This document shows positions 2,032 through 61,540 of a DNA stretch of 64,000 nt, piece by piece. Each line of letters starts with the position of its first letter. The stretch's first letter is position 1. A program made the position numbers and the translations under genes. The notes below the pieces were generated by a model that saw only the letters and a program-made list of their open reading frames with translations, had not been told where the DNA came from and ran no database searches. This stretch comes from Collinsella sp. (GTDB taxonomy: Bacteria > Actinomycetota > Coriobacteriia > Coriobacteriales > Coriobacteriaceae), in NCBI GenBank assembly GCA_052281595.1, contig DAWBRY010000004.1:67854-131853 (forward strand). The letters run 5' to 3'.

Positions 2032-2090
2032 GTTCACTTTGCCGCGGCGGGCGGTTCCTGCCGCGGCGCTTTTCGTTTGGGAGTTTCAAC

Positions 2091-2675: not shown

Positions 2676-2716
2676 GACCGCCACACCGCCCGCGGCAATA
2701 TGATTGGAGTATCGAA

Positions 2717-29632: not shown

Positions 29633-31693
29633 CTATCTCCTCCTCGTATGGTTTGTCGGTGTGTAGCCGTCGTCCCCGCTATCGTCGCGGGACGGTGCGT
29701 ATGCCCGCGCGTCCCTCGCGTTGCCCTTGTCCCTCTTCTCGAGCTCGAGCTCCTTGGCCTTCGGGTGCGAGTTCAGCAGCGCGTTGACGTCAGCGATTGT
29801 CGGTTCGCCGCCGAGGCTGTCGACGTCGGCCTGCGCGACGACGCCGGACTCCACGAGGTCTTCAAGGTATTTCATCTGCCTCTCGGTCGCCGGTCGCTGT
29901 AGATACGGCTCCCATCCGGGTTTCGCCTTCGTGACGTCCCCGTCTGGCACTGCAACAGTCACGGGGGCGTCCTGCGCCCATTCGCTTCCGGCCATGCCGT
30001 ACGCCGAGCGGGCGGCGCGCAAGTCCTCCTCGCGCTGCTCGCTTACGATCTTCGCCTTGGCGCGCTCGTGGTCGCGCTCGATCTGCTTGATCCTGTCCGG
30101 CGTCAGCGCGCCGGCAGCGATCGCCTGCGAATAGGCCTCCCTGTAGCGGACGTATTCGCGCGTCAGCTCGGCGCTCTGGTCGGCGGTGATGACCTTAGCG
30201 CCGCGCACGTTGCGCCCGGCGCCCTTCTGCCTCTCGCCGCGCCCGCGGACATCGGTGGGGCCGATCGGCATCTGCGAGGAAGCCAGGACATCGACCGCGG
30301 CGGAAAGGCGGCGCGAGCGGTTGCGGATGTCGCCCGCAGTGGAAGCGAGGTTAGCGGCGTCGGCCTTGACGCCCTCGCGGCGCGCGAGGAGGTCGGTATA
30401 GGTCGTATCGGTGAGCCCGATGCCGCGCTCGGCCATCCACTTGCGGATCGCCTCCATCTCGCGGAGCTCCACGGCGTTGTCCTCGCGCCATGCCGCCAGG
30501 ACGCCCGGGTCGGTCGGGCGGGCGGTCAGCTGCGCGGCGCAGGCCGTGTAGACCTCGACTTGGCGGATCGCCTCGGCGGTCTGCTCGGCCTCCAGCTTGA
30601 GCGCGTCAGCCCTCGCGTCGAGCGCGTCGACCTCGGCGGCAAGGCGCTTCGCGTCCGCCGCCATGTCCGCGTAGCATCGGTAGCCGCGCTCACGGATGAT
30701 GTTCACCGCGTCGGCGGCGGCAGCGAGGCGCGCGGCGGAGCGCTCGATCCTCTTCGACCGCTCGAGGTTGTTTGACGCCACCGCCTCGAACGTCATGGGC
30801 GGCAGGACGACGTCGGGGACTAGGTCCTCGGCGCACATCCTGACGTTCGGGCGCCGTCCTTCCAGTCGCACGGCAAGGCGCTCGCGCAACCCTTCGACCG
30901 TATAGGAGTCGTCCAGCTTGTATCCCTTTACGGGACGCCCTTTGCCCTCGGGCGGGTAGAACGTCAGCACGCCGCGGCGGTTGATGTTGATTCGGTATCC
31001 CTTTTCCGTCAGGCGCCTCTCGAGCGCGGGCCATGTCCGGCAGCCCTGAAGGGCAGCCTCGATATCGTCGTGCATCGCGTCGGTCCAGAGTCTCCTGCCG
31101 CTGTACCGGGCGCGGCGCTGGGCGTCCGTCTGATGCCTGCGCGGCGGTCGCGCCTCCTGCAATACGACCTCGCGCCGACGGTCGGGGCGCGGCGTTCTCG
31201 CGTACCAGGAACCGTCCTCGTCCCTCGAGAACTTGAAATTGTCGAAGGCGGCGTAGCCGTAGTCGCGGCAGATGCGCTGGAGCTCCATCGCGTCGGCCTG
31301 CACGTCATCGTCGTCGAGGTGGATCTTCCTGCCGTCGACGGGGTTGACGGAGTTGACGACGACGTGGGCATGCGGGATGCCGTTGTCGACGTGCGTCTCG
31401 ATCACCCACTGGTAGCCGCCGTAGCGCTCCCTCACCCAATCGTATGCCAATGTGTCGACCGCCTTGGCATCCAATCCGTCCTCGGGGTCGGGTGAGATCA
31501 CGAAATGGTAGTACTTGCGGCCCGTGTCCTTCTCGAACATCTGGCGCGTCGCGTCCATCTGCTCGTCCCAATCGGCGCTATCGAGATCGATCGAGCTCGA
31601 GCGGAACGTCATGGCACGGCCGTTGCGCGCAAGGTAGTCCTTGATCTGCCTACAGCCGCCGAACTTCCGGGCGAGCGTCTTGAGCATCGCCAT
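29633..31693 (-). CDS. MOB-family relaxase (MobA/VirD2-like nickase N-domain) with a long C-terminal extension.
   Basis: KYYHFVISPDPED… and GIPHAHVVVNSVNPVDGRKIH (relaxase histidine triad region). 686 aa. Start overlaps the mobC stop. Confidence 0.8.
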   Translation of the reverse strand: MAMLKTLARKFGGCRQIKDYLARNGRAMTFRSSSIDLDSADWDEQMDATRQMFEKDTGRKYYHFVISPDPEDGLDAKAVDTLAYDWVRERYGGYQWVIETHVDNGIPHAHVVVNSVNPVDGRKIHLDDDDVQADAMELQRICRDYGYAAFDNFKFSRDEDGSWYARTPRPDRRREVVLQEARPPRRHQTDAQRRARYSGRRLWTDAMHDDIEAALQGCRTWPALERRLTEKGYRININRRGVLTFYPPEGKGRPVKGYKLDDSYTVEGLRERLAVRLEGRRPNVRMCAEDLVPDVVLPPMTFEAVASNNLERSKRIERSAARLAAAADAVNIIRERGYRCYADMAADAKRLAAEVDALDARADALKLEAEQTAEAIRQVEVYTACAAQLTARPTDPGVLAAWREDNAVELREMEAIRKWMAERGIGLTDTTYTDLLARREGVKADAANLASTAGDIRNRSRRLSAAVDVLASSQMPIGPTDVRGRGERQKGAGRNVRGAKVITADQSAELTREYVRYREAYSQAIAAGALTPDRIKQIERDHERAKAKIVSEQREEDLRAARSAYGMAGSEWAQDAPVTVAVPDGDVTKAKPGWEPYLQRPATERQMKYLEDLVESGVVAQADVDSLGGEPTIADVNALLNSHPKAKELELEKRDKGNARDARAYAPSRDDSGDDGYTPTNHTRRR

Positions 31694-31694
31694 G

Positions 31695-32276
31695 CTAGCG
31701 CTCGACCTCCGATTGCTTCCTGAGCTGCACCATGAGGCCGCGCGTCTCCGCGAGCGCCTTGCAGTACGGGTCCTTCAGCGTCGCGACGAAGTTCTCGATC
31801 TGCTCAACGAGTTCGCGGCGGCGCTCGTGGCTCACGTCCGGCATGTCCTGTAAGAGCAGCAGCGTGTTCGCCGCGGCGGCGAGCTGGTTCAGGTTCACGC
31901 CCTGCTTGTTGAGTTCGTAGAAATACTTCTGGAAGAAATCGGGGTCGCCGATGTAGTACATGGGCGTGTGGAGTATTCGGTCGACCATGAAGCGCGACTG
32001 CGTCATGCCGGCTTTCCGCGCGCCCGTGCGTATAAAGGTGTCCTCGTAGGGCGTCACGTTGAAATGCTTCTGCACCGTGCGGTGCTCGGTATCGAGCAGC
32101 CCCTCCAGTGCCTCCTTCACGTCCACGCGCTCGCCGCCGGGCAGCTTCGCCAGCGTGAATTCATGCTTGCCGTAGACCGCCGTCTCGCGGATGAAGTTTG
32201 TCACGGTCGTGCCCGCAAGACGTGCCTTCGCCTTGAGCGCGCCGATCTCCTCCTCGGTCAACCTGATGCTGACCAT
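31695..32276 (-). CDS. mobC: MobC-like ribbon-helix-helix relaxosome accessory protein.
   Basis: MVSIRLTEEEIGALKAKARLAGTTVTNFIRETAV. The RHH fold sits immediately upstream of the relaxase. The longer ORF to 32453 is a GC-rich extension. Confidence 0.6.
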   Translation of the reverse strand: MVSIRLTEEEIGALKAKARLAGTTVTNFIRETAVYGKHEFTLAKLPGGERVDVKEALEGLLDTEHRTVQKHFNVTPYEDTFIRTGARKAGMTQSRFMVDRILHTPMYYIGDPDFFQKYFYELNKQGVNLNQLAAAANTLLLLQDMPDVSHERRRELVEQIENFVATLKDPYCKALAETRGLMVQLRKQSEVER

Positions 32277-32436
32277 CCTCGTCTGTGAGGTGGCTTCCTT
32301 TGCCACGCTTCCTCCAATTCCTCGCGCACCCGTGCGCGACCCCGGTCCAAGGGCGGAGCCCTGGCAAGCGCCGAAGGCGGGCGGGTTTCCGTCGGCGGGC
32401 CGTGCCCGGTGGCGGAAATCTGACCGACTCCGGCGG

Positions 32437-32475
32437 CATAGTTGTACATACATCTACGATGGAGGTACAACTATG
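32437..32475. other. Candidate oriT: 11-bp perfect inverted repeat in an AT-rich patch upstream of mobC.
   Basis: CATAGTTGTAC-atacatctacgatggag-GTACAACTATG, about 160 nt 5' of mobC in a locally low-GC region. Confidence 0.4.
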
Positions 32476-32688
32476 CGTCTCTTGCGAAGTTTTCAGTATC
32501 CTACCCCTATTTGCCTGGGTTTAAACCGCTTTACACCGGTCGTTATGTGCCGAAATGTTGCCGGCGTTTATGCCGTCGGTTGTCGCGTTTGAGTTGGAAG
32601 TGATGCCGTTCAGCAGTTGCATGCCCGATCGGACTTGGATACCGTCACGTCTGTATAGGTTGCTTTCTGCGATGAGAAGGAGGGTCAT

Positions 32689-36756: not shown

Positions 36757-37056
36757 CTAGCGGTCCTTGCGCAGATGCTCCTCGAGCAGCGAGCGCATGA
36801 GGTCGCTCGCACTGCGGTAGCCCTCGCGGCGGTGCTCCACCAGGTACTCCTTGAGCTGCCAGTAGAGGTCGTCGGGGACGATCACGCTCAGGCGGTGCGT
36901 CGGACCCTCAGAGGCCGCCGCCTTTTTCTCAGCTGCCGGCTCGGGGTCGGGGTTCACGACCTTCTCGACGATCGTCTCCTGGCGCTCGACCATCTCCTTG
37001 GAGGTGTCCGTGAAAAAGCTGTTGATGGCGGAGTCCGCCTTCTTAGTCCTCGCCAT
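36757..37056 (-). CDS. ParG/CopG-like ribbon-helix-helix partition adaptor.
   Basis: 99 aa. The C-terminus THRLSVIVPDDLYWQLKEYLVEHRREGYRSASDLMRSLLEEHL is an RHH. Its start overlaps the parA stop (TAATG). Confidence 0.55.
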   Translation of the reverse strand: MARTKKADSAINSFFTDTSKEMVERQETIVEKVVNPDPEPAAEKKAAASEGPTHRLSVIVPDDLYWQLKEYLVEHRREGYRSASDLMRSLLEEHLRKDR

Positions 37057-37604
37057 TACAGCATCGCCTCCACCTTGTCCAGAATCCCCTCGATCGCGTC
37101 CGCCGCGCGGCCGCCCGGCTGCACCTCGGACACCGGTCGGTTGAACGACGCGCCGCGCTTGAACGCCTCGGCGGTCGGCACGCAGCCCAGGATGGGCAGG
37201 TCGTCGGCGGTGAGGAAGTCGGTAAAGCTGCGGTCGATGATTCGCTTGTCGGAATAGCGGTTCACGATCAGGCCGATCTCGAGCTCGGGGTTGACGCCTG
37301 TGATGAGCTGGATCGTGCGCTTCATCGCGCGAAGGCCGCGCTGGCTGGGCTCGACGGGGACGATCGCGATGTCGGCGACCTCCACGCAGCCGCCGAGCTT
37401 GTCGTTCAGATAGCCCGGGGTGTCGACGACGGTGACGGCCTTCTCGCCCTCGACGGTCTTCTGCTCGTGACTCGCGCCGCCCTGCGGGTCGAGGTTGATG
37501 AAGCCGACCTCGCGCCCGCGGCGCTCGAGGCCCCAGGCGATCTCGTCGGCGAACGTCGTCTTGCCGACGCCGCCCTTTTGGTTGACCAAAACGATTGTCT
37601 TCAT
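37056..37604 (-). CDS. parA: ParA-type partition ATPase (small Walker-type).
   Basis: Deviant Walker A LVNQKGGVGKTT. 182 aa. Confidence 0.8.
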   Translation of the reverse strand: MKTIVLVNQKGGVGKTTFADEIAWGLERRGREVGFINLDPQGGASHEQKTVEGEKAVTVVDTPGYLNDKLGGCVEVADIAIVPVEPSQRGLRAMKRTIQLITGVNPELEIGLIVNRYSDKRIIDRSFTDFLTADDLPILGCVPTAEAFKRGASFNRPVSEVQPGGRAADAIEGILDKVEAML

Positions 37605-37734
37605 GTGTTTCCCTTCTACGGGTGCCGCCCGATTTCCGGGCGGCCCTCTCGGATATCTGCCGCCTGCCGGCGGCGGGCACGGGGCCGGCGAGTCGCTACC
37701 GGTCCCGCATCCGCCGACGGCAGGGCGCTAGGGC

Positions 37735-37825
37735 CCTGCCGCTGCCATATATGTACCCAGTTATGCGGATGCGTAAACGCACATCTGCATACCTGTGCGG
37801 ATGCGCGTTTACTTATTCTTGCCCG
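37735..37825. repeat. ATGCG/TGTGCG-rich promoter-proximal repeat, copy 1, 5' of parA.
   Basis: tatgtacccagttatgcggatgcgtaaacgcacatctgcatacctgtgcggatgcgcgtttac. Core IR TGCGT-AA-ACGCA. Confidence 0.6.
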
Positions 37826-37834
37826 CCGGCGCCG

Positions 37835-38107
37835 CTATGCGCCGTATTCCGACGCCCTCGCGGCGCGATACGCGCGGCGCGTTTCGACCTTGCGGCAGCA
37901 CTCCTTCCGTGCCGCCACCGTCCTCTCCGCCACGTCGTAGGCGTACGCGATGAGCGCGCCCGCCACCGGGAACACGGCGCAGTTGATGTAGACATAGCTG
38001 TATGCGAGCATGAACCACATCCCGACGAGCCCCGCGACCAGCGCGGCGGCGGCGGCGACCTTCTCCCTTCCGCTCGGCTCCATTACTTCCCTCTTGCAAC
38101 CGGCCAT
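37835..38107 (-). CDS. Small membrane protein.
   Basis: RBS GGAAGGAGG before ATG 38107. Hydrophobic AAAALVAGLVGMWFMLAYSYVYINCAVFPVAGALIAYAY. The upstream part of ORF 37835..38341 is repeat sequence. Confidence 0.4.
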   Translation of the reverse strand: MAGCKREVMEPSGREKVAAAAALVAGLVGMWFMLAYSYVYINCAVFPVAGALIAYAYDVAERTVAARKECCRKVETRRAYRAARASEYGA

Positions 38108-38159
38108 GACGGCCTCCTTCCGATATTCGGCGATCCCGCGCCGACGCGGTCGCGGCCTC

Positions 38160-38370
38160 CCTTGCCGCTGGTATGTATGTACCCAGCTGCGCACATGCGT
38201 AAACGCACAAGCACGTAAATGCGCACGTATGCGTCTGCGTAATTCGATAATTTGCCCAGCGGGCCGCCCGGACACCGGTCGGCAGGCCCCTGGCCTGCGA
38301 TTTCCATGGCCGGATGACCGGCGGGACCCCATCCGTCCCATAGGCAGCCGGGTGTGGGAAACGTGTGGAG
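38160..38370. repeat. Composite repeat, copy 2: the ATGCG-rich repeat (38160-38262) plus a conserved ~70-nt block (38293-38365), then a terminator hairpin.
   Basis: The 70-nt block (ttccatggccggatgaccggcgggaccccatccgtcccataggcagccgggtgtgggaaacgtgtgg) is ~92% identical to 39010-39075. It is followed by ccccgccgtctccggtggggc. Confidence 0.6.
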
Positions 38371-38443
38371 ACGGGCTACGGCATGAAAAAGCCCCGCCGT
38401 CTCCGGTGGGGCGATCACTTGAGTATGGGGTTGTACGGGTCGG

Positions 38444-38869
38444 CTAGAACGGGATGTCCTCGTCCGCAACCTCGACGGCGGGAGCCTCGGGGACCGCATA
38501 CTGCTGTCCACCATCAACCGCGGCAGCAGGAGACGCGGCAGGGCGGGAGTTCATGAACTCGATCTCGTCGACGATGACCTCGAGCTTGCTGCGCTTCTGG
38601 CCGTCGCGCTCCCAGGAGCTATAGCGCAGCTTGCCCTCGATCGCGACCTTGCTCCCCTTGGAGATATAGCGGCCGACAGCCTCGGCGCGGGTGCCGAACA
38701 TGGTACAGTCGATGTAATTGGGATAGTCCTCCCACTCGCCGGTCTGCGGGTTCTTTCGGCGATCGTTGACGGCGATGCCGAACGAGAGCACCTGGGTGCC
38801 GGCCGCGGTGACGCGGAGCTCGGGATCGCGGGTGAGGTTTCCGGTGATGTTGACTCGGTTGATGCTCAT
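38444..38869 (-). CDS. ssb: Single-stranded DNA-binding protein.
   Basis: MSINRVNITGNLTRDPELR…OB fold, Gly/Pro/Ala linker and C-terminal acidic tip …DEDIPF. Confidence 0.9.
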   Translation of the reverse strand: MSINRVNITGNLTRDPELRVTAAGTQVLSFGIAVNDRRKNPQTGEWEDYPNYIDCTMFGTRAEAVGRYISKGSKVAIEGKLRYSSWERDGQKRSKLEVIVDEIEFMNSRPAASPAAAVDGGQQYAVPEAPAVEVADEDIPF

Positions 38870-38911
38870 TGGCTTCTATCCTTTCGGTTCCGACGGGGGC
38901 CGATCCCCCGC

Positions 38912-39080
38912 CTTCGTCGCCATGTATGTACCCAGATGCTCAGATGCGTAAGCGCATAGATGTGCGTTTGTGCGGCTATGTATTGGGCTGGCACCGGAGT
39001 CCGGCGTTTTCCATGGCCGGATGACCGGAGGGACCCCATACGTCCCGTAGGCAGCCGGTTGTGGGAAACGCGTAGCGATT
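38912..39080. repeat. Composite repeat, copy 3 (ATGCG-rich repeat plus the conserved ~70-nt block), 5' of ssb.
   Basis: catgtatgtacccagatgctcagatgcgtaagcgcatagatgtgcg… then ttccatggccggatgaccggagggaccccatacgtcccgtaggcagccggttgtgggaaacgcgtagcg. Confidence 0.6.
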
Positions 39081-39121
39081 CCTCCGGTTCGGTTCTCGCC
39101 CAGTTTGAATCACGGGGCGGT

Positions 39122-39553
39122 TCAGAAGGCGTGCGTTCGGCGCCGGTTAGGGTCCGGGGCCGGCTCTACACGTGGGACGCATATGGCGCCGCTGAAGGAT
39201 GCCACGTCGTAGGCGTCGCGCAGTGCGGCGACCAGGCATTCGCGTGTAACGTAGAAGTCCGGCTCCCATTTCTCGCCGTCGCCGCCCGTCACCCGATACC
39301 ATCCCTCTCCCTGCCAGACCTTCTCGACCGCCTGATCGATCACAGAGATTTCGGCGTAGGGCAGGTGGATCTCGCCGGCATCCCCGTAGGCACCGCGAAG
39401 GTCGTCGGCAAGGTCCGCTTCGGTTCCATACCATGTGGCCGGATACGATCCCATCCCATCGGTGAAGCAGATTCGGTACCAGCCCTCGCCCTGCCAGCAT
39501 TCCTCCAGATCGGCAGCGACGGCGCGCCCGATCTCGTCATCGTCCGTATACAT
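39122..39553 (-). CDS. Hypothetical protein with an internal duplication (…CWQGEGWYRICF… / …VWQGEGWYRVTG…).
   Basis: RBS AAGGAG 5 nt before ATG 39553. 143 aa. Confidence 0.5.
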   Translation of the reverse strand: MYTDDDEIGRAVAADLEECWQGEGWYRICFTDGMGSYPATWYGTEADLADDLRGAYGDAGEIHLPYAEISVIDQAVEKVWQGEGWYRVTGGDGEKWEPDFYVTRECLVAALRDAYDVASFSGAICVPRVEPAPDPNRRRTHAF

Positions 39554-44943: not shown

Positions 44944-45768
44944 TCACCTGTGAATCTCCTTTATGCTCTTCAAAATGGGGGCGGTGCAGACGCGGTGCCG
45001 AGTCTCACGTATCGCAGCGCGCCTGGCCTCGTCCTGCATGAGCTTCGGTCTCCCCTCGCGAAAGGCCGCGGCCCTTCTCGCCGCCGCTGCGAATTTCCGC
45101 TCGGCCTCGTCGAAGTCGATATCGCGCCACGCGCGATCCCCGCCCGTGCCGGATATGAAAACCGACGGCACCACATGGCTGCTGTCCGCATAGTCCGCCG
45201 GGACGGACATCTCCGCATAGCCCGACGGCTCGCTGCCGTCCGGCAGCCGGTACACGACGAGCTCCTGCTTCCTGCGTTTGCTCACGCGGCGCTCGCACAG
45301 CTCGAGATGGAACGCCTCGTACGCCATGGCGCTATATGGGGAGCAGGAGAAGCGGTACTCGAATAGGCATTCCGCTTCCCTCCGATGCCGTTCCGCCTCC
45401 TGCACCCGGGCCGCAGCCTGCGCCCGGATCCGGTCGCGCTCGGCCGCCTCCTCGGGCCCGAGCTCGCGGAACGCCCCGACCACGGCGGCCTCGTCCAGGG
45501 CGAAGAACTCCGTCTCGCGGGCGTAGGCGCCGGTGTGGTGCCAGGACGAGTAGGCGATGAACCGGTCGAAGAGCGCGGCCCTGGTCTCGGACTCGACCGC
45601 GGGGTCGTAGAGCAGGTCCATCTCATCGCAGTAGCCCCTCAAGGCGCCGAGGATCGCCGCCTTGGTCCATTTCGAGCGGGGCATCTCCCCCGCCTCGTAG
45701 GCCGCCCGCGCGTTCGCGCTCATGGAGGCGCCGATGTATCCCTTTTGCCCGTAAGCCACCCTAGACAT
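44944..45768 (-). CDS. Hypothetical protein.
   Basis: 274-aa ORF, partly helical and Arg/Glu-rich. Confidence 0.45.
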   Translation of the reverse strand: MSRVAYGQKGYIGASMSANARAAYEAGEMPRSKWTKAAILGALRGYCDEMDLLYDPAVESETRAALFDRFIAYSSWHHTGAYARETEFFALDEAAVVGAFRELGPEEAAERDRIRAQAAARVQEAERHRREAECLFEYRFSCSPYSAMAYEAFHLELCERRVSKRRKQELVVYRLPDGSEPSGYAEMSVPADYADSSHVVPSVFISGTGGDRAWRDIDFDEAERKFAAAARRAAAFREGRPKLMQDEARRAAIRETRHRVCTAPILKSIKEIHR

Positions 45769-45954
45769 GTCAAACCCTTCGCGCGGATGCGTTCCGTCCC
45801 AGCTTTTTCTACCCCGTGCGCGGGAAGTCTTTCACTCGATTCGAGCCGGTGCAGGGGCATTTTTATCCGTCGAGTTTCGGTAGGGGCGTGTAAAGCGCGG
45901 CGGGGGCGGGTATCAAAGCTGCTGTGTATGCCAATTCCAATAAAGAGGTGGTCC

Positions 45955-47157
45955 ATGTCCGACCCGATCGCCGCGGCCGAAGCCGCCGGCAAAGCCCGCG
46001 ATATCGCCAACCGCTTCGAGACCGCCGTATTCCTCATCGCATACGGCATCGCCGAGAAGGACGGCCTCTACGAGGCCGACCCGCATAGGTATCCCTACAG
46101 CCAGGCATTCAGACACGGCATGAATATCCTCGCCGCGCTGTGCGCTGAGTGTTCCGACGATGCGGAAGAGCTGCTGCCGACGTTCAATGAGTCCGATTTC
46201 ATCAGGAACAGCGCAGCGTCAGACGTGCGCGAGTGGACGGCCCGGTGGCGCGACGAGTGCAGGGAAGCCGTCGAAGGGTGCCGGTCCATCGAGATCGGGC
46301 CCCTGGCGTCAGTAGACGGCGACTACTTCGCCGCGACGTCGGAATGCTACGAGGTGCTGCGCTTTGCGGAAAACGACCTCTTGGGCGGCCATCAGGAACG
46401 CAGGGTGTATGAATTCCTCCGAGCCGGCACCCAGGAGCAATACGTGTACGGACGCAGGATGCTCATCCGCCACCCGCTGCTCACCTGGAACGAATACGTC
46501 AGGATCAAGACGGGGCTCGCCCTGGGCGACCCCGACCCCCTCGACCAGGGCGAAGCCGACACCATCGACCCGGTGTGGTTGCAGGAATTCGTCTCCATGG
46601 CCTACGAACCCGTCCCGGGCGCCGCAAAAGTATGCCCGAATTGCGGCTGGACGATGACCATGCGAGGCAAGCAGCCCCACTGCTCATCGGCGACGTGCGC
46701 CAAGGCCGTCACAGGCGATTTCGACAAGCTGGACAGCGTCGCGCACGACGCCTTCCGCCTATCCCGCGGCGTCATGCACTACATCTCTTCCCCCGGAAAG
46801 CTCGAGCTGGCGATCGCCGAGGCCGCAGCGGGCCTCGGTCTGAAATACGAAATGTGGCCCCTCAAGGACACCTGCGACATCCTGATCCATCTGCCGGACG
46901 GCCGGCAGCTTGCCGTCGACGCCAAGGCATACGGCCGCGCCGAGCGGCTTGCCCGCGAGATAGAGGACGACACCGGCATCGCCCAGATGTGCGCGGACGA
47001 GGTGGCCTATGTCGTGCCGGACCAAGTCGAACGGGACCATCCCGGATATCGCGCGCTATGCAATGCCGTCCTGCGCGGCAAGACCGGCTATTCATGCGAA
47101 ACGCTGCGCAACTTCTCGAAACGACTCGATGCCGCCGCGAAGGGAGGCACGCGATGA
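45955..47157 (+). CDS. PD-(D/E)xK restriction-endonuclease-fold protein with an internal Zn ribbon. First gene of the candidate defence operon.
   Basis: RBS AAAGAGGTGG before ATG 45955. CPNCGWTMTMRGKQPHCSSATC (Zn ribbon). C-terminal …DILIHLPDGRQLAVDAKAY fits PD…D-x-K. Confidence 0.55.
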   Translation: MSDPIAAAEAAGKARDIANRFETAVFLIAYGIAEKDGLYEADPHRYPYSQAFRHGMNILAALCAECSDDAEELLPTFNESDFIRNSAASDVREWTARWRDECREAVEGCRSIEIGPLASVDGDYFAATSECYEVLRFAENDLLGGHQERRVYEFLRAGTQEQYVYGRRMLIRHPLLTWNEYVRIKTGLALGDPDPLDQGEADTIDPVWLQEFVSMAYEPVPGAAKVCPNCGWTMTMRGKQPHCSSATCAKAVTGDFDKLDSVAHDAFRLSRGVMHYISSPGKLELAIAEAAAGLGLKYEMWPLKDTCDILIHLPDGRQLAVDAKAYGRAERLAREIEDDTGIAQMCADEVAYVVPDQVERDHPGYRALCNAVLRGKTGYSCETLRNFSKRLDAAAKGGTR

Positions 47158-50100
47158 GCGAGCCGAATGATACAGCCCAGGAAGGCTTCGACCAGCTGAA
47201 GCGCAATCTCGAGGTGCGCTATCCCGAGGACAGCGACCTATCCCTCGACGAGTTCCTGAACGTGGAGTCGCTGCTCGCGCTCGCGGTACGCGTATGCGGT
47301 CCCGGCGCCGATCCCCGAAAGGCCGACAGGCTCCTATCGAACTACCAGCTCATCAGGCCCGAGACCATCGGCGCGGACGGCCACCTCATGCAGATGGCGC
47401 GCCGACACCTGTTCTCGCTGGCTTCATCTACGGCCTGGCGGCGACTGCTGGGCCTCTACGAGCGCGCGGAATATGAGCGGTACCGGTTCTTCGATATCGC
47501 CAACGGCGGAATGGCCCTGCGCGAGCACCCCTTTACCGGGATCGACCGCATGCCGATCTATATAGACCGCCTCCTCGGCGATGTCAAACCCTCCCATAAA
47601 AACGTGGTCGCGAGACCCAAAGGACGGTATTCCTACACATGCAAGCCCGAGGCGACCGGCGATACCACGGTAACCGGATCGATCCGTTGGGTGACCATAC
47701 CCGATGCCGTGCCGCCCCAAACGGGCAAGATTGACGATATCCCCCGCAAGAGCAGGCGCCCGCCCATCGATATCACCCTCGACGAGCTCATCTCGACCGC
47801 GGACGAAGTCGGGGAGAAGACCGGGAAGACCCACTACGCCGCCGTGCTCAGAAGGGTCAAGGACCAGGGGCTCCTCAAGCGGGCCCGCGGCGGCAGCACA
47901 TCCGTCGCTGACGGCCTGCGCCTCGATGAGGTCGTGAGCCTCGTCGGCCTCGTCGGCGCCGGCAAGTCCGTCCTCGCCAACATGCTCATCGTCTGCCTCG
48001 CGAAGCGCGGCCTGCGCGCGGCATCCCTGCTCAACTCGGTATCGGACGTGATGGAAAGCGTCGTCCTGCTTCGCGAGGCGGGAATCAGCGCCTCGCCCCT
48101 GGTGTCGCGCGGCAGGCGCATCGAACGGCTCGACGAGTTCTTCGACCACGATGACTCCATGCTCCTCGACCATTCCGCATCCAAATACCTGGAGACCGCC
48201 TGCATCATGGACGGGCTCTCCTCTTCCGATCCCGAGGCCTGCGGATACGGCAGCACGCCATGCCGCGGCCTCCGGTCCAAGAAGGGCGGCGCGAACTCAT
48301 GCCCGTACTGGAACGTGTGCCCATCGCAGGCCATGGCCCGCGAGTCCCTGACATCCGACGTCGTGGTCACGACTCCCACCGGCTTCGCCACCATGATCGT
48401 CGGAAGGGAGCGCAAGGCATTCTTCGAGGAGGCTCTTCAGCAGTTCGACGTCGTCCTGTTCGATGAGGCGGACCGCGTGCAGGCGCAGCTCGACGGCTGC
48501 TTCGCCCCGAGCATGAGCTTCCAGGAGCTCATCCGCAACGCCGCCGACCCGACAGCCGTAGCCATGAAGCGGCGCCCGGACGACAAGATGAGGGACTTCA
48601 ACGAGGAGCTTTTCTATGACCTGCGCCAGAAATCCGAGCCCGTCGCGAAGGCGCTGCTCAAATCCGTCAGGGACGACCGCGTGGCGAAATGGCGCATCGT
48701 CAAGGACGAGGCGTTCACGTCGCTCTCGCTTCTGAACGACCTCCTGGAGCAGGGCCTTCCCAAACAGGTTTACGAGGATGCCGACAAACTCATCAACCCC
48801 TATAGATTCGAGATTGCCAAGAAGAGCCTCGATGGCGGCGACGCGGCCCTCAACAAGCCCTCGCAGGCGGTCGCGACCTCCTGCGAGGGCATCGACGACG
48901 ACACCCACAGCTACTCGTTGAACGAATACCTCGCTGCATGCGGATGCTCGGAGCTTCCCGACGAGCTGCGGACCAGGTTCTCCTTCGCCCTCAAGGTCAT
49001 CCGGTTCGACTCGTACCTGCGCGAACTCGCCTCCGCGCAGGACCTCCTCAGCTTCAAGGACGATTCCGTCGACGAGCTGTACAACTTCCTCAAGTTCAGC
49101 TACACGCGCCAGCAGCACTATCTCCCCAACTCGCTGATCGGCAACATCTTCGGGATGAAGCTCGACGGCAACGACCTCAGGCTTTTCCGGCAGTTCGCCT
49201 TCGGGCGGGCCTTCATGTGCTCGCTGCCCTGGCTCGATACCGACCCCGCCGGGGCGGCGCTGGGGCCGCACGTGCTCCTGCTCTCCGGTTCGAGCTGGGA
49301 GCCCGGCTGCCTGCAATACCACGTGAACAGGCCGGTCGACTACCTCCTCGAGGCGGAGCCGTGGAAGGCGGCCAAGCTCTCCACCTCGACCGTGAGGGAC
49401 CTCGGCATCGAGCAGAACGTGTCCGGCAGCGCCGCCGAGATGCGTTCCGGCAACCTCGGCATCGTCCTATCGCAGACCATGGCCACGCTGAGGGACGAAC
49501 TCGACGCGGATGGCGCGGGAAAGGCCCTGGTCATCGTGAACAGCTACCGGGAGGCCGAGGACGCACGCGACCGCATCGAGCAAGAGCTCCGACGCAAGGG
49601 CCAGGCAATCAAGGTCGCGGCCCTGGTGCGCAACAACCACGACCACAGGGAGCACTTCGTGCCCCGGAGCGAAGTCTACAAGTTCTGCGACCATCCGGCC
49701 AAAGTGCTCGTGGCGCCGGCCATGGCCATCGAGCGCGGCTTCAATATCGTCGACCGCGGCGGCCATGCCGTGTTCACGAGCCTCATCTTCTCGGTGCGGC
49801 CGATGGGCACACCGCACGACCTCGGCGGGCGATACCGCAAGCTCAACGGCCTCATCGAAAGGGAGGTCGGCGACTACCCGGCCAATCCCGGGGAGTTCGC
49901 GACCGAGGTCAGGGCCTCCGCCTGGCGCACATGGAAGACCATGGAGCGGGACGAGAACCTTCCCATGGGCGCATGGAGGACCATGGGCAGGCAATTCCTC
50001 GTAGACGACGCGATCTCCACGCTCATGGTCACGATCATCCAGATATTCGGACGCCTGGCGAGGCTTGCCGATAAGGAGAGGCCCGCGCCGCATGTCTATT

Positions 50101-50276
50101 TCGCCGATGCGGCCTTCCGCGGCGGCGACGGGAAGCTCTCGTTCAGGACCCTGGAAGAGCTCGGCGCCTACATGGAACGCCTCATGCACGATAGCGACCA
50201 GCCGGAGGTCGCCAAAGCCCTCTACGGGCCGTTCTACGAGTCGTTCAGGAAAGGAATCGGAAATGTCGGACTCTAA
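47154..50276 (+). CDS. DinG/XPD-family Fe-S SF2 DNA helicase.
   Basis: Walker A GLVGAGKSV. Four-Cys Fe-S insert EACGYGSTPCRG…NSCPYWNVCPSQ. DEAD/H box VLFDEADRV. ATGA overlap with the upstream gene. Confidence 0.7.
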   Translation: MSEPNDTAQEGFDQLKRNLEVRYPEDSDLSLDEFLNVESLLALAVRVCGPGADPRKADRLLSNYQLIRPETIGADGHLMQMARRHLFSLASSTAWRRLLGLYERAEYERYRFFDIANGGMALREHPFTGIDRMPIYIDRLLGDVKPSHKNVVARPKGRYSYTCKPEATGDTTVTGSIRWVTIPDAVPPQTGKIDDIPRKSRRPPIDITLDELISTADEVGEKTGKTHYAAVLRRVKDQGLLKRARGGSTSVADGLRLDEVVSLVGLVGAGKSVLANMLIVCLAKRGLRAASLLNSVSDVMESVVLLREAGISASPLVSRGRRIERLDEFFDHDDSMLLDHSASKYLETACIMDGLSSSDPEACGYGSTPCRGLRSKKGGANSCPYWNVCPSQAMARESLTSDVVVTTPTGFATMIVGRERKAFFEEALQQFDVVLFDEADRVQAQLDGCFAPSMSFQELIRNAADPTAVAMKRRPDDKMRDFNEELFYDLRQKSEPVAKALLKSVRDDRVAKWRIVKDEAFTSLSLLNDLLEQGLPKQVYEDADKLINPYRFEIAKKSLDGGDAALNKPSQAVATSCEGIDDDTHSYSLNEYLAACGCSELPDELRTRFSFALKVIRFDSYLRELASAQDLLSFKDDSVDELYNFLKFSYTRQQHYLPNSLIGNIFGMKLDGNDLRLFRQFAFGRAFMCSLPWLDTDPAGAALGPHVLLLSGSSWEPGCLQYHVNRPVDYLLEAEPWKAAKLSTSTVRDLGIEQNVSGSAAEMRSGNLGIVLSQTMATLRDELDADGAGKALVIVNSYREAEDARDRIEQELRRKGQAIKVAALVRNNHDHREHFVPRSEVYKFCDHPAKVLVAPAMAIERGFNIVDRGGHAVFTSLIFSVRPMGTPHDLGGRYRKLNGLIEREVGDYPANPGEFATEVRASAWRTWKTMERDENLPMGAWRTMGRQFLVDDAISTLMVTIIQIFGRLARLADKERPAPHVYFADAAFRGGDGKLSFRTLEELGAYMERLMHDSDQPEVAKALYGPFYESFRKGIGNVGL

Positions 50277-52788
50277 GCTGCACCTCATGTCATTCGCACC
50301 CGTCCCCGACACCAAGACGACCGTGCACGTCGTCGGCTTGCCCGACAGCCTGCGCGACGCCCTCTTCACGCTCATGCCCCCGAGGAAAGAGGGCGGCTAC
50401 CTCAACACCAAAGTCCTCAAGGACGACCTGCGCTGCTGGCTCGACCGGGCCGTCGAGCTGAATCCCGTACGCCCCAACGTGCATACCGACAGCTGGCTTA
50501 TCGCCCTCGCCCCCATTGATCTCGCGAAGCTATGCAACGTCATCGCGGTCTGGATCTCCTCCCGCAAGGACATCGATACCCAATCCCCCGCCTACCGCAA
50601 GGTGATGGGGATGCTGCACCCCGAGACGTTCGAAGAGGCCGTGCGTGGCGAAGAGATCCGCCTGTTCAGCGGCGACGGCCGTCCCACGGGCAGGCTCACC
50701 TTCCCCGCATTCTCCGCGCAAGTCGCCGACGCCATCGCCGACATCCCCCTCGAACTCGCCAACGGCATGGTCGAGAACTTCAGCAGAGTCTCACGCGGAA
50801 ACGGAAACGTCTACGAGCTGATTTCCGATATCCACTGGCACAAGGAGGACCCGTGGGCGTTCGCCCTCAGATTCCACGTCGAGTCGCTGCCGGTCGGCCG
50901 CAAGGCAAGGCTCAACATGGATGTCGCCGTCCGCCGCTTCATCGGCAAGCCATGGCAGGACGACCCGTTCCTCAAACACGATGTCAACGCCTACGTCCGC
51001 ACGGAAGGCGGCACGCTCCGCGTCGTCCCCTACGGCTACGACAAACAGAAGCGCGACTTGGCCTGGGACCCCGCGGCCCTGGCGAACTACGAGTTCGCCA
51101 GCGGGACCGGATTGCCCGCAGTCCGCGAGTATCTTGAGGACATGGGCAGGTACGCCCGCGACGGCTCGCAGCCGCAGATCCTATCCCCCTACGCGATGAC
51201 CGCCTCCTGGGCATCGAAGCCTTCGGTCGCAAGCGGGGCATCCGTCATCGACAAGGCCATGTTCTTCGAGGCCGTCGCGGCTCGGCTCAAAGATATCGCG
51301 GAGCCCGTCGGTGCGCTCGACTCGCTTCAACTGACCCATCTCAAGGCGTCCATAGAGGAACCCAGGCAGGCGGATTGGGACAAGGACCCCGTCAGCGCAC
51401 GGGCGAGACAGGAGACCTGGGGCCGGGCCAACCGCGCCAGACTCGCCCGCTGCACCGGCAGGGACAGGGCCGTATTCCAGCTGATCGGCAACCAGGACGA
51501 TGCCCGACTCCTCGATATGGCAAGGGCCGAGATCTCCCGCTTTCTCGGTGGGGAGGGGGCCGTCGACGGCTTCGAGGTCGAGATCGATAACATCCCGGCG
51601 AACGACCTCCTGAACCGCATGGAGAATACCGGCGACAGCCAGGCGAAGATCCGCTGGCGCAAAGTCGCCGCCGCGCTTCCCGAGGCGACCGACCCGACCG
51701 CGTGCATAGTGGTCCTGCCGGGCGCCGAGAGCTACAAGCCCAAGGGCAAAGACGACGGCGGAGACCCCAAGCGCGCCCTGCGCATCGCGTTCGCGAAAAC
51801 CGGGCGCCTGACCCAATTCATCGAACCCGAGGACTCGAAGGACAGTCCCGAGATCCGCGCGCGCGTCGCCGTCCGCGACCTCATGCGCCAGCTCGGTTTC
51901 GTACCCGAACCGGCACGCAATTCGCGCGGCATCGATACCTCGATCCCGGCGATAGGGTTGAAGGTCTACAACTCCGGCAACGGCAAAGCGCGGGCGAGCT
52001 TCCCCTATTGCGTCCGACAGGACATGAGAAGCGGTGCCGTCACCGTGCACTGCCCCCTCCTACCTGACGGAAGCCTACCGTACTGGCGCGCCCTCATCGA
52101 GTTCGCCCGGCTGAGCGGTTCCGAGGGCTTTCCGGACTCCTGCAAGCGGGCGAACGGAATGGCCCTGAAGAGGATGCTCCACGGCATAGTCCGCGCCACC
52201 GGCGACAGGCCGGAACTCCTCCTCGTCAACTCCTACGGCCGCATCCGCCAGAGAGACTGGTGGCCCGGCATCAGCGACTCCGGCCTCGAGTCGGGACCTT
52301 TGAGCTACGGACCGAACGGTTATGAGGAGCCGCTTGGCCTCGCGGGCAGCAAGCTGCGCATCCTGCGTATACGCTCCGGTCTCAACGGCGAGGTCCCCGA
52401 CTGGTTCACGGACGAGGTGGCCGCGGGCGGCGCAGACGACGGCACCGTGCCGAACAGGCGCGACAAGCAGGGACTCTTCAAGATGGACGGCTACTTCCTC
52501 GCGTTGGCCCCGCGACCGGGCGACGCCCAGTACAAATGGTCCGCACGCGGATCGAAGTACGATTCGCCCACCGCGGCGTTCTGCGAGAAGACGATCAACG
52601 AGTACTGCCTTCTGTCGCCCGGTGGTGAGGCCGAGGCGCTTGCCAGCGTCAAATACGCCGAGGCCCTGCGCGGCTGCATGGTGCAGCTCTACAAGAACGA
52701 TATGAGAGTGAACCTTCCCGCCCCGCTCCATCTCGCCGAGCAGGTCGAGGAGTATATCTGGGACTGGGAGCTCACCGGCAGACGGTAG
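50263..52788 (+). CDS. Large (842-aa) uncharacterised protein, third gene of the operon. Candidate pPIWI-RE-like effector (hypothesis).
   Basis: Overlaps the helicase stop. No motif I can assign confidently from sequence alone. Confidence 0.5.
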   Translation: MSDSKLHLMSFAPVPDTKTTVHVVGLPDSLRDALFTLMPPRKEGGYLNTKVLKDDLRCWLDRAVELNPVRPNVHTDSWLIALAPIDLAKLCNVIAVWISSRKDIDTQSPAYRKVMGMLHPETFEEAVRGEEIRLFSGDGRPTGRLTFPAFSAQVADAIADIPLELANGMVENFSRVSRGNGNVYELISDIHWHKEDPWAFALRFHVESLPVGRKARLNMDVAVRRFIGKPWQDDPFLKHDVNAYVRTEGGTLRVVPYGYDKQKRDLAWDPAALANYEFASGTGLPAVREYLEDMGRYARDGSQPQILSPYAMTASWASKPSVASGASVIDKAMFFEAVAARLKDIAEPVGALDSLQLTHLKASIEEPRQADWDKDPVSARARQETWGRANRARLARCTGRDRAVFQLIGNQDDARLLDMARAEISRFLGGEGAVDGFEVEIDNIPANDLLNRMENTGDSQAKIRWRKVAAALPEATDPTACIVVLPGAESYKPKGKDDGGDPKRALRIAFAKTGRLTQFIEPEDSKDSPEIRARVAVRDLMRQLGFVPEPARNSRGIDTSIPAIGLKVYNSGNGKARASFPYCVRQDMRSGAVTVHCPLLPDGSLPYWRALIEFARLSGSEGFPDSCKRANGMALKRMLHGIVRATGDRPELLLVNSYGRIRQRDWWPGISDSGLESGPLSYGPNGYEEPLGLAGSKLRILRIRSGLNGEVPDWFTDEVAAGGADDGTVPNRRDKQGLFKMDGYFLALAPRPGDAQYKWSARGSKYDSPTAAFCEKTINEYCLLSPGGEAEALASVKYAEALRGCMVQLYKNDMRVNLPAPLHLAEQVEEYIWDWELTGRR

Positions 52789-52851: not shown

Positions 52852-54696
52852 CTACCGCTTATTCGCCTTGCGTGTATTTCGGGTGCGACCGGCGGACTCT
52901 TTCGCCGAGCCCTTCCGCTTCCCAGGACGAGAGTCGGACGGGCTCGGCTGACGACGAGCGGAGCCCAAGTCGAAGCCGGAGTTTTTCGCAATCCTCGCCT
53001 CAATCTCGGAGCGCCGGATGCCGAGCTCCGATGTGCGGACACGATAACCGCCCTCCTTGCGGACGACATAGAGCTCATGTGGGCCGCAGTCCCAATCGAG
53101 TACGTACCCGGCAAGGAGCATCTTGGCATCCAGATGGTCCTTGGACATCGCGCCGGAGAGCGCAGCCTTGAGGGCGAAGGTGGCCCGAGTCACGATATCC
53201 GCCCGGATCTTCTCCTCGAGGGTTCGAGCCGGCCTTTCGGTCCCCGGTTCAGGGGTACCTCCCTTGCTGTTCTCCAGGGCGCCTTCCAGGGCGGGAGGCG
53301 TGGGGGCGTCGGGGTCCCTGCCGTCCATGAGGTCTCGGATGTAGGCGCGAACCTGCGACTCGAAGCGGCGCGGGCACTCGATCTGGACCGGCTCCTCCAT
53401 CCTGCGCTCGAGGGAATCGTAGAACTCCACGACCTCGCGGCTGGCGATCAGGCGGTTCGGCTCGATCTTGGGGAACACGGTGAGGCCGGCGGCGGAGCGC
53501 ACGCGGGACAGGCCGACGTACAGCTGGCCCTCGGCGAAGACCTTCGTGTGGACGCAGCAGGCGTCGAACGTCAGGCCCTGCGACTTGTGGATGGTGATGG
53601 CGTAGGCGAGCTTGAGCGGGATCTGGGTATAGGTTCCCACGACGGCGGTCATGACCCTGTTGACGGGCCTGCCCTCATCGTCCATCTCGACGACGGCCTC
53701 GGACTTGTTGATCTCCCATCTGTGCCGCTCGATGCGGACCTTCTCGTCCGCCCCGTCGAACTTGACCGTCACGGCGTCCGCGGACGCGTCGGTGACGGTG
53801 CCCTGCGTGCCGTTGACGTAACCCTCCTGAGGGCTGTTCACGAGCGACATCACGCGGGCGCCGCGGCACAGGACGATCCTCTCCGGCGCCATCTTGTCGC
53901 CGTTTGACGCCGTGCCGGTCGCGGCGGCCGCGAACTCGACCTTCGGTGCGTCGAGCGCGTCGACGTTCTCGCGGTTGATCGAATCGGCGATGCGGTTGTT
54001 GGCGCACAGCACCAGCGTGTCCTTCGGCAAGTAGGCGCGGGAGCTCTTCGAGTGCGCGTTGAAGTAATCGAGGCACGACGCGTCGCCGACGCGGGCGCGG
54101 TTCAGGTTGTCGATGAAATCGGGGTCGGATTGGCGCACGACCGTCTTGAGGACGTGAGGCTCGAAATCGAAGCCGGTCCAGTACCTCGACTTGAAGCACC
54201 AGCCCTGGAGGTTTCCGGGATAGAACTTCATCAGCAGCGCGGAGTCGCGTTCGGTCACGACCGGCGGCAGCTGGAAGAAATCGCCGACGAGGACCACCTG
54301 CTTCGCGCCGTTGCGCGTCATGGACTGGGAGATCATCCCCATCACGTGGTCGAACAGGTCGATGCGGCACATCGAGATCTCGTCGATGATGATTACCTTC
54401 GCGGCGTCGAGCACCTTGCGGGACCCCTTGGGGCCATCGGGGGCGCAGACCCCCGGCGCGATTTTCAGCGTGCGGTGGATCGTCGAGCCGTCCGTGAGGT
54501 TCAGCGCGGCGATGCCGGTGGGCGCCAGGGCGAGGAAATCGACGTTGCGCGCCTTCAGATCCGATATGAAGGCGTTGAGCACGTAGCTCTTGCCCGTGCC
54601 GGCGTTGCCCGAGAGGGACACGTTCCTCCCGTCCCTCAGCGCGCTCAGCGCCTCGGCCTGTTCCGGTGTAAAGCGGTCACCGTCTGCCATTTCCAT
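52852..54696 (-). CDS. PIF1/RecD-family SF1 DNA helicase with a basic disordered C-terminal tail.
   Basis: SGNAGTGKSYVLNA (Walker A), IIIDEISMC (Walker B) and VLVGDFFQLPPV (motif III). 614 aa. Confidence 0.8.
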   Translation of the reverse strand: MEMADGDRFTPEQAEALSALRDGRNVSLSGNAGTGKSYVLNAFISDLKARNVDFLALAPTGIAALNLTDGSTIHRTLKIAPGVCAPDGPKGSRKVLDAAKVIIIDEISMCRIDLFDHVMGMISQSMTRNGAKQVVLVGDFFQLPPVVTERDSALLMKFYPGNLQGWCFKSRYWTGFDFEPHVLKTVVRQSDPDFIDNLNRARVGDASCLDYFNAHSKSSRAYLPKDTLVLCANNRIADSINRENVDALDAPKVEFAAAATGTASNGDKMAPERIVLCRGARVMSLVNSPQEGYVNGTQGTVTDASADAVTVKFDGADEKVRIERHRWEINKSEAVVEMDDEGRPVNRVMTAVVGTYTQIPLKLAYAITIHKSQGLTFDACCVHTKVFAEGQLYVGLSRVRSAAGLTVFPKIEPNRLIASREVVEFYDSLERRMEEPVQIECPRRFESQVRAYIRDLMDGRDPDAPTPPALEGALENSKGGTPEPGTERPARTLEEKIRADIVTRATFALKAALSGAMSKDHLDAKMLLAGYVLDWDCGPHELYVVRKEGGYRVRTSELGIRRSEIEARIAKNSGFDLGSARRQPSPSDSRPGKRKGSAKESAGRTRNTRKANKR

Positions 54697-60300: not shown

Positions 60301-60490
60301 GCCCGCGGACGAGCGATGCGAAGTCCGCATCGACGCGCGACCGGTCCAGCTCCCAGAGGTCGGCGATGAAGTCGAGCAGGACCCTCACCGTCCCGGTGCG
60401 CTCGGGTCGCGGGAGGCGCGGCACCAGCAGGACGACGGAGTAGAGGGCCTGCTCATAGCTGCGCCCCTCCTGGGGGGCACGGCGGCTCAT
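60290..60490 (-). CDS. Small (66-aa) ORF translationally coupled to the DnaC-like gene (ATGA overlap).
   Basis: MSRRAPQEGRSYEQALYSVVLLVPRLPRPERTGTVRVLLDFIADLWELDRSRVDADFASLVRGLPR. Confidence 0.3.
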   Translation of the reverse strand: MSRRAPQEGRSYEQALYSVVLLVPRLPRPERTGTVRVLLDFIADLWELDRSRVDADFASLVRGLPR

Positions 60491-61518: not shown

Positions 61519-61540
61519 CTCGGTTCTCCCTCCGTCTGAG

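Follow-up and report, generated by a model that had tools for sequence, protein, structure and literature searches.

The leading regions of the conjugative plasmids F and ColIb-P9 carry repeated, homologous and strand-specific folds of the transferred strand (Frpo/ssi), which lie directly upstream of ssb and establishment genes, all of them pointing to the origin of transfer, oriT (PMC11541004). Folded single-strand promoters can also act as roadblocks to duplex conversion (bioRxiv 10.64898/2026.01.09.698686). Here we describe a locus of similar layout in a 64-kb stretch of Collinsella sp. DNA (contig DAWBRY010000004.1; the whole stretch is hereafter called the window), which includes part of a gut Coriobacteriia element that is either mobilisable or conjugative. 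In this element, two copies of a 69-nt hairpin, b1 and b2, flank an ssb gene. Like Frpo, it is a repeated, strand-specific fold on the predicted transferred strand, directly upstream of ssb and of genes that point towards a putative oriT. However, Frpo is ~300 nt long and its stem mimics a −35/−10 promoter, whereas the conserved unit in the window is exactly 69 nt with flanks not conserved between the copies, has no promoter mimic, lies upstream of a separate, ordinary promoter/operator, and occurs also far from the leading region.

Gram-positive conjugative elements carry orientation-specific and redundant single-strand origins, sso (PMC4595007). Those of rolling-circle plasmids and sso1 of ICEBs1 are folded DNA of the displaced or transferred strand, may be present more than once per element, and are known from both plasmids and integrative elements of Gram-positive hosts (PMC4595007). 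The window hairpin resembles these, being strand-asymmetric with all copies of a contig on one strand. It differs in that known sso types span 150–300 nt, with several stem-loops and the motifs RS_B and CS-6 (TAGCGT/A), whereas we observed a single 69-nt hairpin in which neither motif is conserved; its core has GTAGGC, and a TAGCGA just 3′ of copy b2 lies outside the hairpin and is not conserved. A further group comprises the primosome and primase hairpins (phiX174-type n′ sites, G4-type sites, and ssiA/ssiB of RSF1010), which occur close to plasmid origins or else on a lagging or transferred strand. These share with the window hairpin a compact size (~40–70 nt), internal loops and the reading of one strand, but not its sequence, and no primase gene was recognised near the hairpin. 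We consider the hairpin, with its proposed function, best classed as a variant of the single-strand signals known from other conjugative systems. In the literature searched, we found no earlier description of it.

Structure, conservation and distribution of the hairpin

A first-pass annotation of the window, made from the letters alone, had described two ~92% identical blocks of ~70 nt around ssb. The blocks proved to be real. A repeat finder returned a 78-nt block in two copies (38294–38371 and 39001–39078) that are 88% identical, and the structured unit proper of 69 nt (Table 1) is ~90% identical between b1 and b2. Across the 64 kb, the 31-nt core of the block has exactly two occurrences, against none in 100 shuffles, and a covariance model search with the filters off found no further copy of the hairpin in the window.

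Both copies form one long imperfect hairpin, which begins with GCGTTTT, finishes with GAAACGC, and consists of a lower stem, a bulged middle stem, a GGA/GTA internal loop, a 5-bp apical stem and a 7-nt loop. The fold is far more stable on the plus strand, which is antisense to ssb. With RNA parameters in an 86-nt context, b2 folded at −46 kcal/mol on the plus strand (z = −4.3) against −31 on the minus strand, and b1 at −37 against −27; the corresponding values for the 70-nt core of b2 were −43 and −30. With DNA parameters, the plus-strand folds had −20.4 (b2), −15.9 (b1) and −19.5 kcal/mol (class C, a third class of the hairpin described below). The covariance model scored b2 at 97 bits on the plus strand versus 35 on the minus strand, and b1 at 92 versus 27. 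The non-Watson-Crick cells of the paired positions were 135 G·T versus 12 A·C on the plus strand, and each of the three main hairpin classes has 4–5 G·T pairs and zero A·C. One copy (locus L114) has diverged at six stem positions; of the pairs affected, only one is lost, the others persisting as G·U on the plus strand, where the lower stem is kept through G·U pairs only.

We compared six variants of the element. The mean pairwise identity was 96% for hairpin b2 and 90% for b1, as against 71–80% for the flanking spacers (80% for the spacer adjoining b1) and 77% for the third codon positions of ssb (first and second positions, 92%). As the identity of the hairpin exceeds that of both the spacers and the third codon positions, the hairpin is, by this sequence comparison, under purifying selection. 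All variants adopt one common fold: across 33 distinct element variants, 90% of the cells pair, compared with at most 46% when the partners were slid, and pair 19–51 switches between U-A and G-C. When probable distant plasmid relatives (see below) were added, RNAalifold on a plain MAFFT alignment, which is not fitted to structure, gave 23 pairs, 12 of them with compensatory changes, and 95.6% of the cells paired versus at most 49% when slid. The earlier proposal of a conserved structured block is thus borne out: selection is supported, and wobble and compensatory changes preserve the pairing.

Scanning one genome per species with 20-mers, we recovered both copies, spaced by ~708 nt, from 9 Coriobacteriia genomes and just one copy from a tenth; there was also one chance match. 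The carriers are Collinsella spp., Gordonibacter pamelaeae, Gordonibacter sp. 28C and one uncultured Coriobacteriaceae genome. The same element is nearly identical over 37900–39400 in several Collinsella species and Gordonibacter (loci L002 and L004–L011), and such near-identity across different Coriobacteriia families points, on sequence grounds, to recent cross-family spread. Variant elements, found through homologues of the single-strand DNA-binding protein (SSB) at 79–90% identity, have the same gene order and both hairpins, and ssb lies between the repeats in every element seen. The closest relatives outside the element family, at 76% identity, belong to chromosomal rpsF-ssb-rpsR loci.

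The element is common in human gut metagenomes. A metagenome scan that queried the outer stem sequences only returned b1, b2 and the third class, C, which was counted in 25 loci. The other matches were in unrelated contexts, were without the apical and middle parts and folded weakly, and we took them as chance; true matches of the genome and metagenome scans are confined to these three fixed loci. A scan of viral contigs with the stem pattern gave zero matches.

In class C, the lower stem and the apical stem-loop are identical to those of the other classes, and the middle helix differs yet pairs, GGCGGC with GCCGCC. It follows the intrinsic terminator of a Tad-like pilus operon (RcpC, ATPase, TadB/C, DUF192) at ~30 nt and precedes an XRE-family gene by ~520 nt; relative to these neighbouring genes it is in sense orientation. 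In all three contigs that hold both, class C is 48–56 kb from b1/b2 on the same strand. By extrapolation it would lie ~13 kb beyond the left edge of the window, which agrees with the two copies only that the model search found inside. At locus L039 (8753–8822) and 24 other loci, class C is followed by the XRE regulator gene and an mIHF-like H2TH gene, and at locus L122 a gene for a 1460-aa methyltransferase/helicase/LuxR fusion is found further downstream.

The covariance model also found one hairpin in each of three Collinsella aerofaciens plasmids, with 24–28 bits and E = 4e-5 to 2.5e-3. Judged by their sequences, these are probably distant relatives of the element hairpin: they share its architecture, the GGA/GTA(G) internal loop, the ATGAC and GTTGT motifs, and the strand asymmetry (−39.9 versus −27.9 kcal/mol). 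In plasmid 7 the hairpin is 0.5 kb from the mob operon on the strand opposite to the relaxase gene, as in the window. pCaero1 retains the hairpin, although its annotation lists no counterpart of the relaxase of plasmid 7. All three plasmids have a large conserved, hairpin-rich non-coding region (L142, 6406–8064; L141, 5650–6493; L143, ~1800–3680) that probably holds origins of transfer and/or replication.

The promoter-like module and the predicted transferred strand

The repeats around ssb had been taken for a single composite of ~180 bp. The repeats are genuine, but the units measure 212 and 170 nt and consist of two modules with a non-conserved spacer between them, ~85 nt in copy 1 and ~42 nt in copy 2, which was not alignable between the copies in an alignment of the three upstream regions. 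All the local genes around the hairpins, ssb and its neighbours, are on the minus strand, as judged from Pfam and from open reading frames (ORFs) supported by GC content at third codon positions (GC3). Read on this strand, each unit has the order hairpin block, variable spacer, AT-richer repeat, 5′ untranslated region with a ribosome-binding site, and gene; therefore, the composite is better described as two separate modules. In an alignment of the six variants, related elements show insertions: a 28-nt one separates the hairpin from the promoter module and a 30-nt insertion lies directly after GGGTACATAC; the spacing between hairpin and module is thus free. The two also occur apart, since the parA copy is a module without the hairpin and class C is a hairpin without the module.

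The AT-richer repeat, first noticed as an ATGCG repeat, is a 50-nt family with three copies in the window that are 72–82% identical according to the repeat finder (Table 1). Its core, ATGTATGTACCCAG, occurs three times in the window as against 0.05 expected. The palindrome TGCGTTTACGCA is present, exactly or with one mismatch, at these three window sites only, and is accompanied by extra (N)CGCA half-sites and the invariant CTGGGTACATA. In related elements the module is kept while the flanking spacers carry insertions and deletions. It is probably a duplex promoter with a palindromic operator, through which one repressor co-regulates ssb, the gene for a small membrane protein (listed as hydrophobic in Table 1), and parA. 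The small ribbon-helix-helix (RHH) protein encoded next to parA is, from its sequence, a candidate binder of the repeated operator. The reuse of one operator in several plasmid maintenance promoters is known from pSM19035 (omega sites), IncP plasmids (KorA/KorB) and R388. As in those regulons, a short operator is shared by maintenance-operon promoters, here next to a ParA and small RHH gene pair; it differs in being a 5-2-5 palindrome (TGCGT-TT-ACGCA) with extra half-sites instead of heptad arrays.

The first-pass annotation had also considered the block a 5′ leader of ssb and neighbouring genes. This is not supported: in gene orientation the block precedes the promoter-like module, with a distance that varies, its stable fold is antisense to the genes, and the hairpin is found away from any ssb, namely after the Tad-like operon and beside the plasmid mob genes. 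The terminator hairpin that had been reported after the first copy turned out to be the terminator of ssb itself, read on the wrong strand: its GC stem (38391–38412) is followed by the T-run on the minus strand.

Next to nikA, the gene for a NikA-like accessory protein, we found a layout that resembles an oriT (Table 1). The 19-bp inverted repeat (32437–32476) overlaps the nikA start codon and contains GTACATACAT, the AT-rich core that is also present in the three promoter modules. We presume the nick assignment from the YATCCTG/Y nick consensus of RP4/R64-type relaxases, with the nick before the final Y. TATCCTAC is the sole match in the window to TATCCTRC, an 8-mer expected about twice by chance; the strict YATCCTGY has seven window matches, equal to chance, and none near nikA. 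In plasmid 7, a comparable repeat is followed by AAACCTGC on its plus strand.

In conjugative plasmids, leading-region genes, including that of SSB, have an orientation in which the transferred strand can serve as template, with single-strand promoters ahead of them, and the relaxase gene usually enters the recipient last (PMC11541004). In the window, the genes between 33 and 39.7 kb are transcribed towards the putative oriT (32.44–32.50 kb), from which ssb is ~6 kb away; the relaxase and NikA-like genes, by which the transfer module is defined, are on the minus strand and the hairpin folds on the plus strand. From the layout of the repeat and TATCCTAC, together with the two rules from the literature, we predict by analogy that the plus strand is the transferred strand and that 33–39.7 kb is the leading region.

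Weighing the possible functions of the hairpin

From the observed structure, selective conservation, strand specificity and positions of the hairpin, we favour, tentatively and at a little under an even chance, that it is a DNA signal active in single strands, which would start complementary-strand synthesis or early expression. Such a signal fits better than an RNA gene or leader because the orientation of the hairpin follows one DNA strand and not the local genes, because nothing beyond the 69 nt is common to its contexts, and because plasmids without a recognised relaxase retain it. The hairpin would act whenever the plus strand is present in single-stranded form, be it in the recipient once transferred or in a donor undergoing rolling-circle replication, and would stay folded in SSB-coated DNA. 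A priming or transcribing enzyme would recognise the invariant internal loop (GGA/GTAG) together with the stems, and synthesis from the hairpin would proceed towards oriT. The first DNA to be made duplex or transcribed would then be the adjacent promoter and gene, ssb in the case of b2, and copy b1 may serve the membrane-protein gene and parA likewise.

Several observations weigh against a single-strand DNA signal. Only two pairs show changes of both partners within the element family itself; most compensatory changes split the plasmid clade from the element clade and count only if the homology, at 24–28 bits, is real. The many G·U-type pairs are better tolerated in RNA than in DNA, and the lower stem of the L114 copy is lost when DNA parameters are used. 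In no class did inspection show a −35/−10 mimic (a TTGACA/TATAAT-like pair) or TANNNT on either hairpin arm, so the hairpin is no copy of a Frpo-type promoter. Searches with Pfam, NCBIfam and PHROGs recognised no primase among the neighbouring genes, and neither a primase nor a recombinase among those neighbouring proteins that lack an assignment. There are no conserved ssoA motifs; TAGCGT is present in two of the three plasmid relatives and absent from the element hairpin core. The nick site and the transferred strand are, moreover, assigned by analogy. A long Frpo-like fold of the whole composite unit was considered and rejected, as 230–260-nt DNA folds gave local hairpins only (z of −0.6 and −2.2). 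A bolder proposal, which we think unlikely, is that Coriobacteriia elements use this compact ~70-nt hairpin as a start signal independent of a promoter. Recognised on the transferred single strand by both its sequence and its shape, it would make the adjacent duplex promoter and gene, ssb first, expressible within moments of entry. It would be an actinobacterial counterpart of Frpo on a different principle, and the invariant GGA/GTAG internal loop might be read by a protein of the element or the host that has yet to be recognised.

The alternative that survives best, though also unlikely, is that the hairpin works as plus-strand RNA, made antisense or divergently around ssb and as a read-through or leader transcript at the class C site, where it would be bound by a protein or would stabilise or process the RNA. 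The pairing kept via many well-tolerated G·U pairs and a covariation of the structured-RNA kind would suit this, and divergent transcription towards the hairpin is conceivable in that the AT-rich promoter core GTACATACAT is nearly symmetric. However, the orientation tracks the DNA strand, antisense around ssb and sense at the class C site; class C begins ~30 nt after an intrinsic terminator; conservation is limited to the 69 nt; and a consensus scan found no sigma-70-like site on either strand. An independent small-RNA gene, as suggested in the first-pass annotation, is likewise unsupported, as the three contexts are without a common promoter or terminator and Rfam gave zero matches at gathering thresholds across the whole window. 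A permissive Rfam search (E up to 10, 37600–39200) returned only chance microRNA-like matches away from the hairpins. A coding role of the block was also considered: short ORFs cross it on both strands, but GC3 and context oppose coding.

It is improbable that the hairpin acts in duplex DNA, as a palindromic site for an element protein (a regulator, a nucleoid or a partition protein) or as a terminator or insulator without a U-tract against antisense transcription. Its position between transcription units, upstream of strong shared promoters, and its conserved sequence blocks would suit a sequence-specific protein. A duplex site, however, gives no reason why transition mismatches should be G·T on the same strand (135 versus 12), nor why compensatory changes should preserve intrastrand pairing. 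The distance to the promoter is variable, the promoter copy at parA is without a hairpin, and no T-run follows b1 or b2 on the plus strand, as an intrinsic terminator would have.

We regard as slightly less probable again a target of a single-strand-specific nuclease or recombinase, either a secondary relaxase site or one of attC or REP type, with ssb as a cassette that could be excised or exchanged. One gene with its own promoter and terminator is indeed flanked by direct repeats of a hairpin with strand specificity, and the apical ATCCGTCCCATA matches the putative nick region ATCCTACCCCTA at 9 of 12 positions, but b2 and other variants alter the nick-like CC. Integron attC sites are similarly single-strand hairpins with bulges, specific in structure and strand, in direct orientation on both sides of a gene; here, the RYYYAAC/GTTRRRY core sites are absent, the bracketed unit has its own promoter and terminator, and neither an integron integrase nor a Y1 transposase was detected among the neighbours scanned. 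REP/BIME elements have tens to hundreds of dispersed copies, whereas this family has two in the 64-kb window and is not multicopy in that sense. The cassette boundary of the first-pass annotation finds some support, of a weak kind, in the mosaic ssb of otherwise 99–100% identical elements; the mosaic breakpoints, however, differ from case to case and are not at the hairpins. Every element seen has ssb between the hairpins, with no empty site and no other cargo.

In the mosaic elements (L016 and L023), the ssb segment, 38400–38900, is 76–90% identical with both sides at 99–100%, a pattern that implies, at the sequence level, allele replacement by recombination. Across the family the SSB proteins are 79–100% identical. 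The single hairpin spacing of 2.4 kb is due to an IS3-family insertion (L094, 2273–3930; HTH OrfA and DDE OrfB by inspection) in the ssb terminator at about window position 38402. With the mosaic breakpoints elsewhere and this spacing explained by an insertion sequence, cassette exchange at the hairpins was rejected.

That the direct repeats around ssb are functionless scars of the duplication that inserted it is very improbable, given a hairpin conservation well above neighbouring non-coding DNA and synonymous sites, its upkeep with compensatory changes at a third locus and probably in plasmids, and a spacer within the composite that is not alignable between the copies.

Gene context and implications

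The features of the region are collected in Table 1. We placed the element in the Coriobacteriia because its closest similarity at the DNA level is to Collinsella plasmids, in their ParA/RHH genes, and to an Eggerthella phage, in its ssb. In Eggerthella phage PMBT5, which was considered as a possible context, ssb is inside an operon and the hairpin is absent.

Table 1. Positions of the hairpins, promoter modules, putative oriT and genes in the window
Feature	Position	Strand	Remarks
Hairpin copy b2, 69 nt	39004–39072	+ (stable fold)	In gene orientation, upstream of the ssb promoter module
Hairpin copy b1, 69 nt	38297–38365	+ (stable fold)	Flanked by the terminator of ssb and the next gene's promoter module
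Promoter/operator-like module, ssb	38909–38961	−	Near-palindrome TGCGCTTACGCA, (N)CGCA-type short repeats, CTGGGTACATACAT; presumed function
Promoter/operator-like module, small hydrophobic-protein gene	38160–38235	−	Three-copy repeat family
Promoter/operator-like module, parA	37734–37810	−	Three-copy repeat family; no hairpin
Putative oriT	32437–32504	+	19-bp inverted repeat, 20 nt, TATCCTAC; directly upstream of nikA
ssb, 141 aa	38444–38869	−	Pfam SSB, E = 5e-32
Intrinsic terminator of ssb	38386–38412	−	GC stem, then TTTTT on the minus strand; kept in all related elements
Small hydrophobic-protein gene, 90 aa	37835–38107	−	ORF and GC3; preceded by GGAAGGAGG
parA	37056–37604	−	Pfam CbiA/AAA_31
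Small RHH-like gene	36757–37050	−	Plasmid homologue annotated as CopG-family RHH; weak PDB match to RHH, E = 0.19
Relaxase gene, MobA/VirD2 nuclease domain	29633–31693	−	Pfam PF03432, E = 2e-23
NikA-like accessory gene	31695–32453	−	Pfam PF21983, E = 6e-22

Several genes of no assigned function lie between the NikA-like and RHH-like genes in the same minus-strand block, which also includes, upstream of ssb, an ORF ending at 39122. This ORF has an internal direct repeat (39294–39317 and 39474–39497) with a duplicated W(Q/R)GEGWYR motif, and its length varies widely across related elements, with 39 to 261 aa called. The small hydrophobic protein is called as a 90–91-aa gene in related contigs and had no family match in Pfam, NCBIfam or PHROGs. 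There are no tRNA or tmRNA genes in the window.

Elsewhere in the window, 15 consecutive ORFs on the plus strand (1–21000), well supported by a high GC3, had no Pfam match at E = 1e-3 or better, and may encode an uncharacterised transfer or surface apparatus. A three-gene pPIWI_RE defence island is located at 45385–52788 on the plus strand (Pfam E-values 2e-27 to 5e-65); it encodes an REase, a helicase-like protein with domain Z, and an Argonaute-like pPIWI_RE protein with X, MID and RNaseH domains. On the minus strand, 52852–54696 and 60487–62953 hold a PIF1-like helicase gene and a gene pair for an HTH_36 protein and an IstB/DnaC-like ATPase, which suggests a replication module of the same element.

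The hairpin is a real and conserved structured element with strand specificity. It is coupled to a promoter/operator that is used repeatedly, and it lies in what is probably the leading region of a widespread mobile element of gut Coriobacteriia. These bacteria are abundant in the human gut. To our knowledge, the early steps by which conjugative DNA establishes itself are understood almost exclusively from enterobacterial plasmids (Frpo/ssi) and a few elements of Firmicutes (sso), and we know of nothing comparable described for Coriobacteriia. If the hairpin were instead an RNA or a nuclease site, it would still be an uncatalogued conserved structured element with clear covariation. As a defined 69-nt strand-specific signal beside ssb, it would be a tractable handle on how such elements establish themselves in new hosts, and it would provide a model with which to search actinobacterial elements that lack annotation for their leading regions and transfer polarity.

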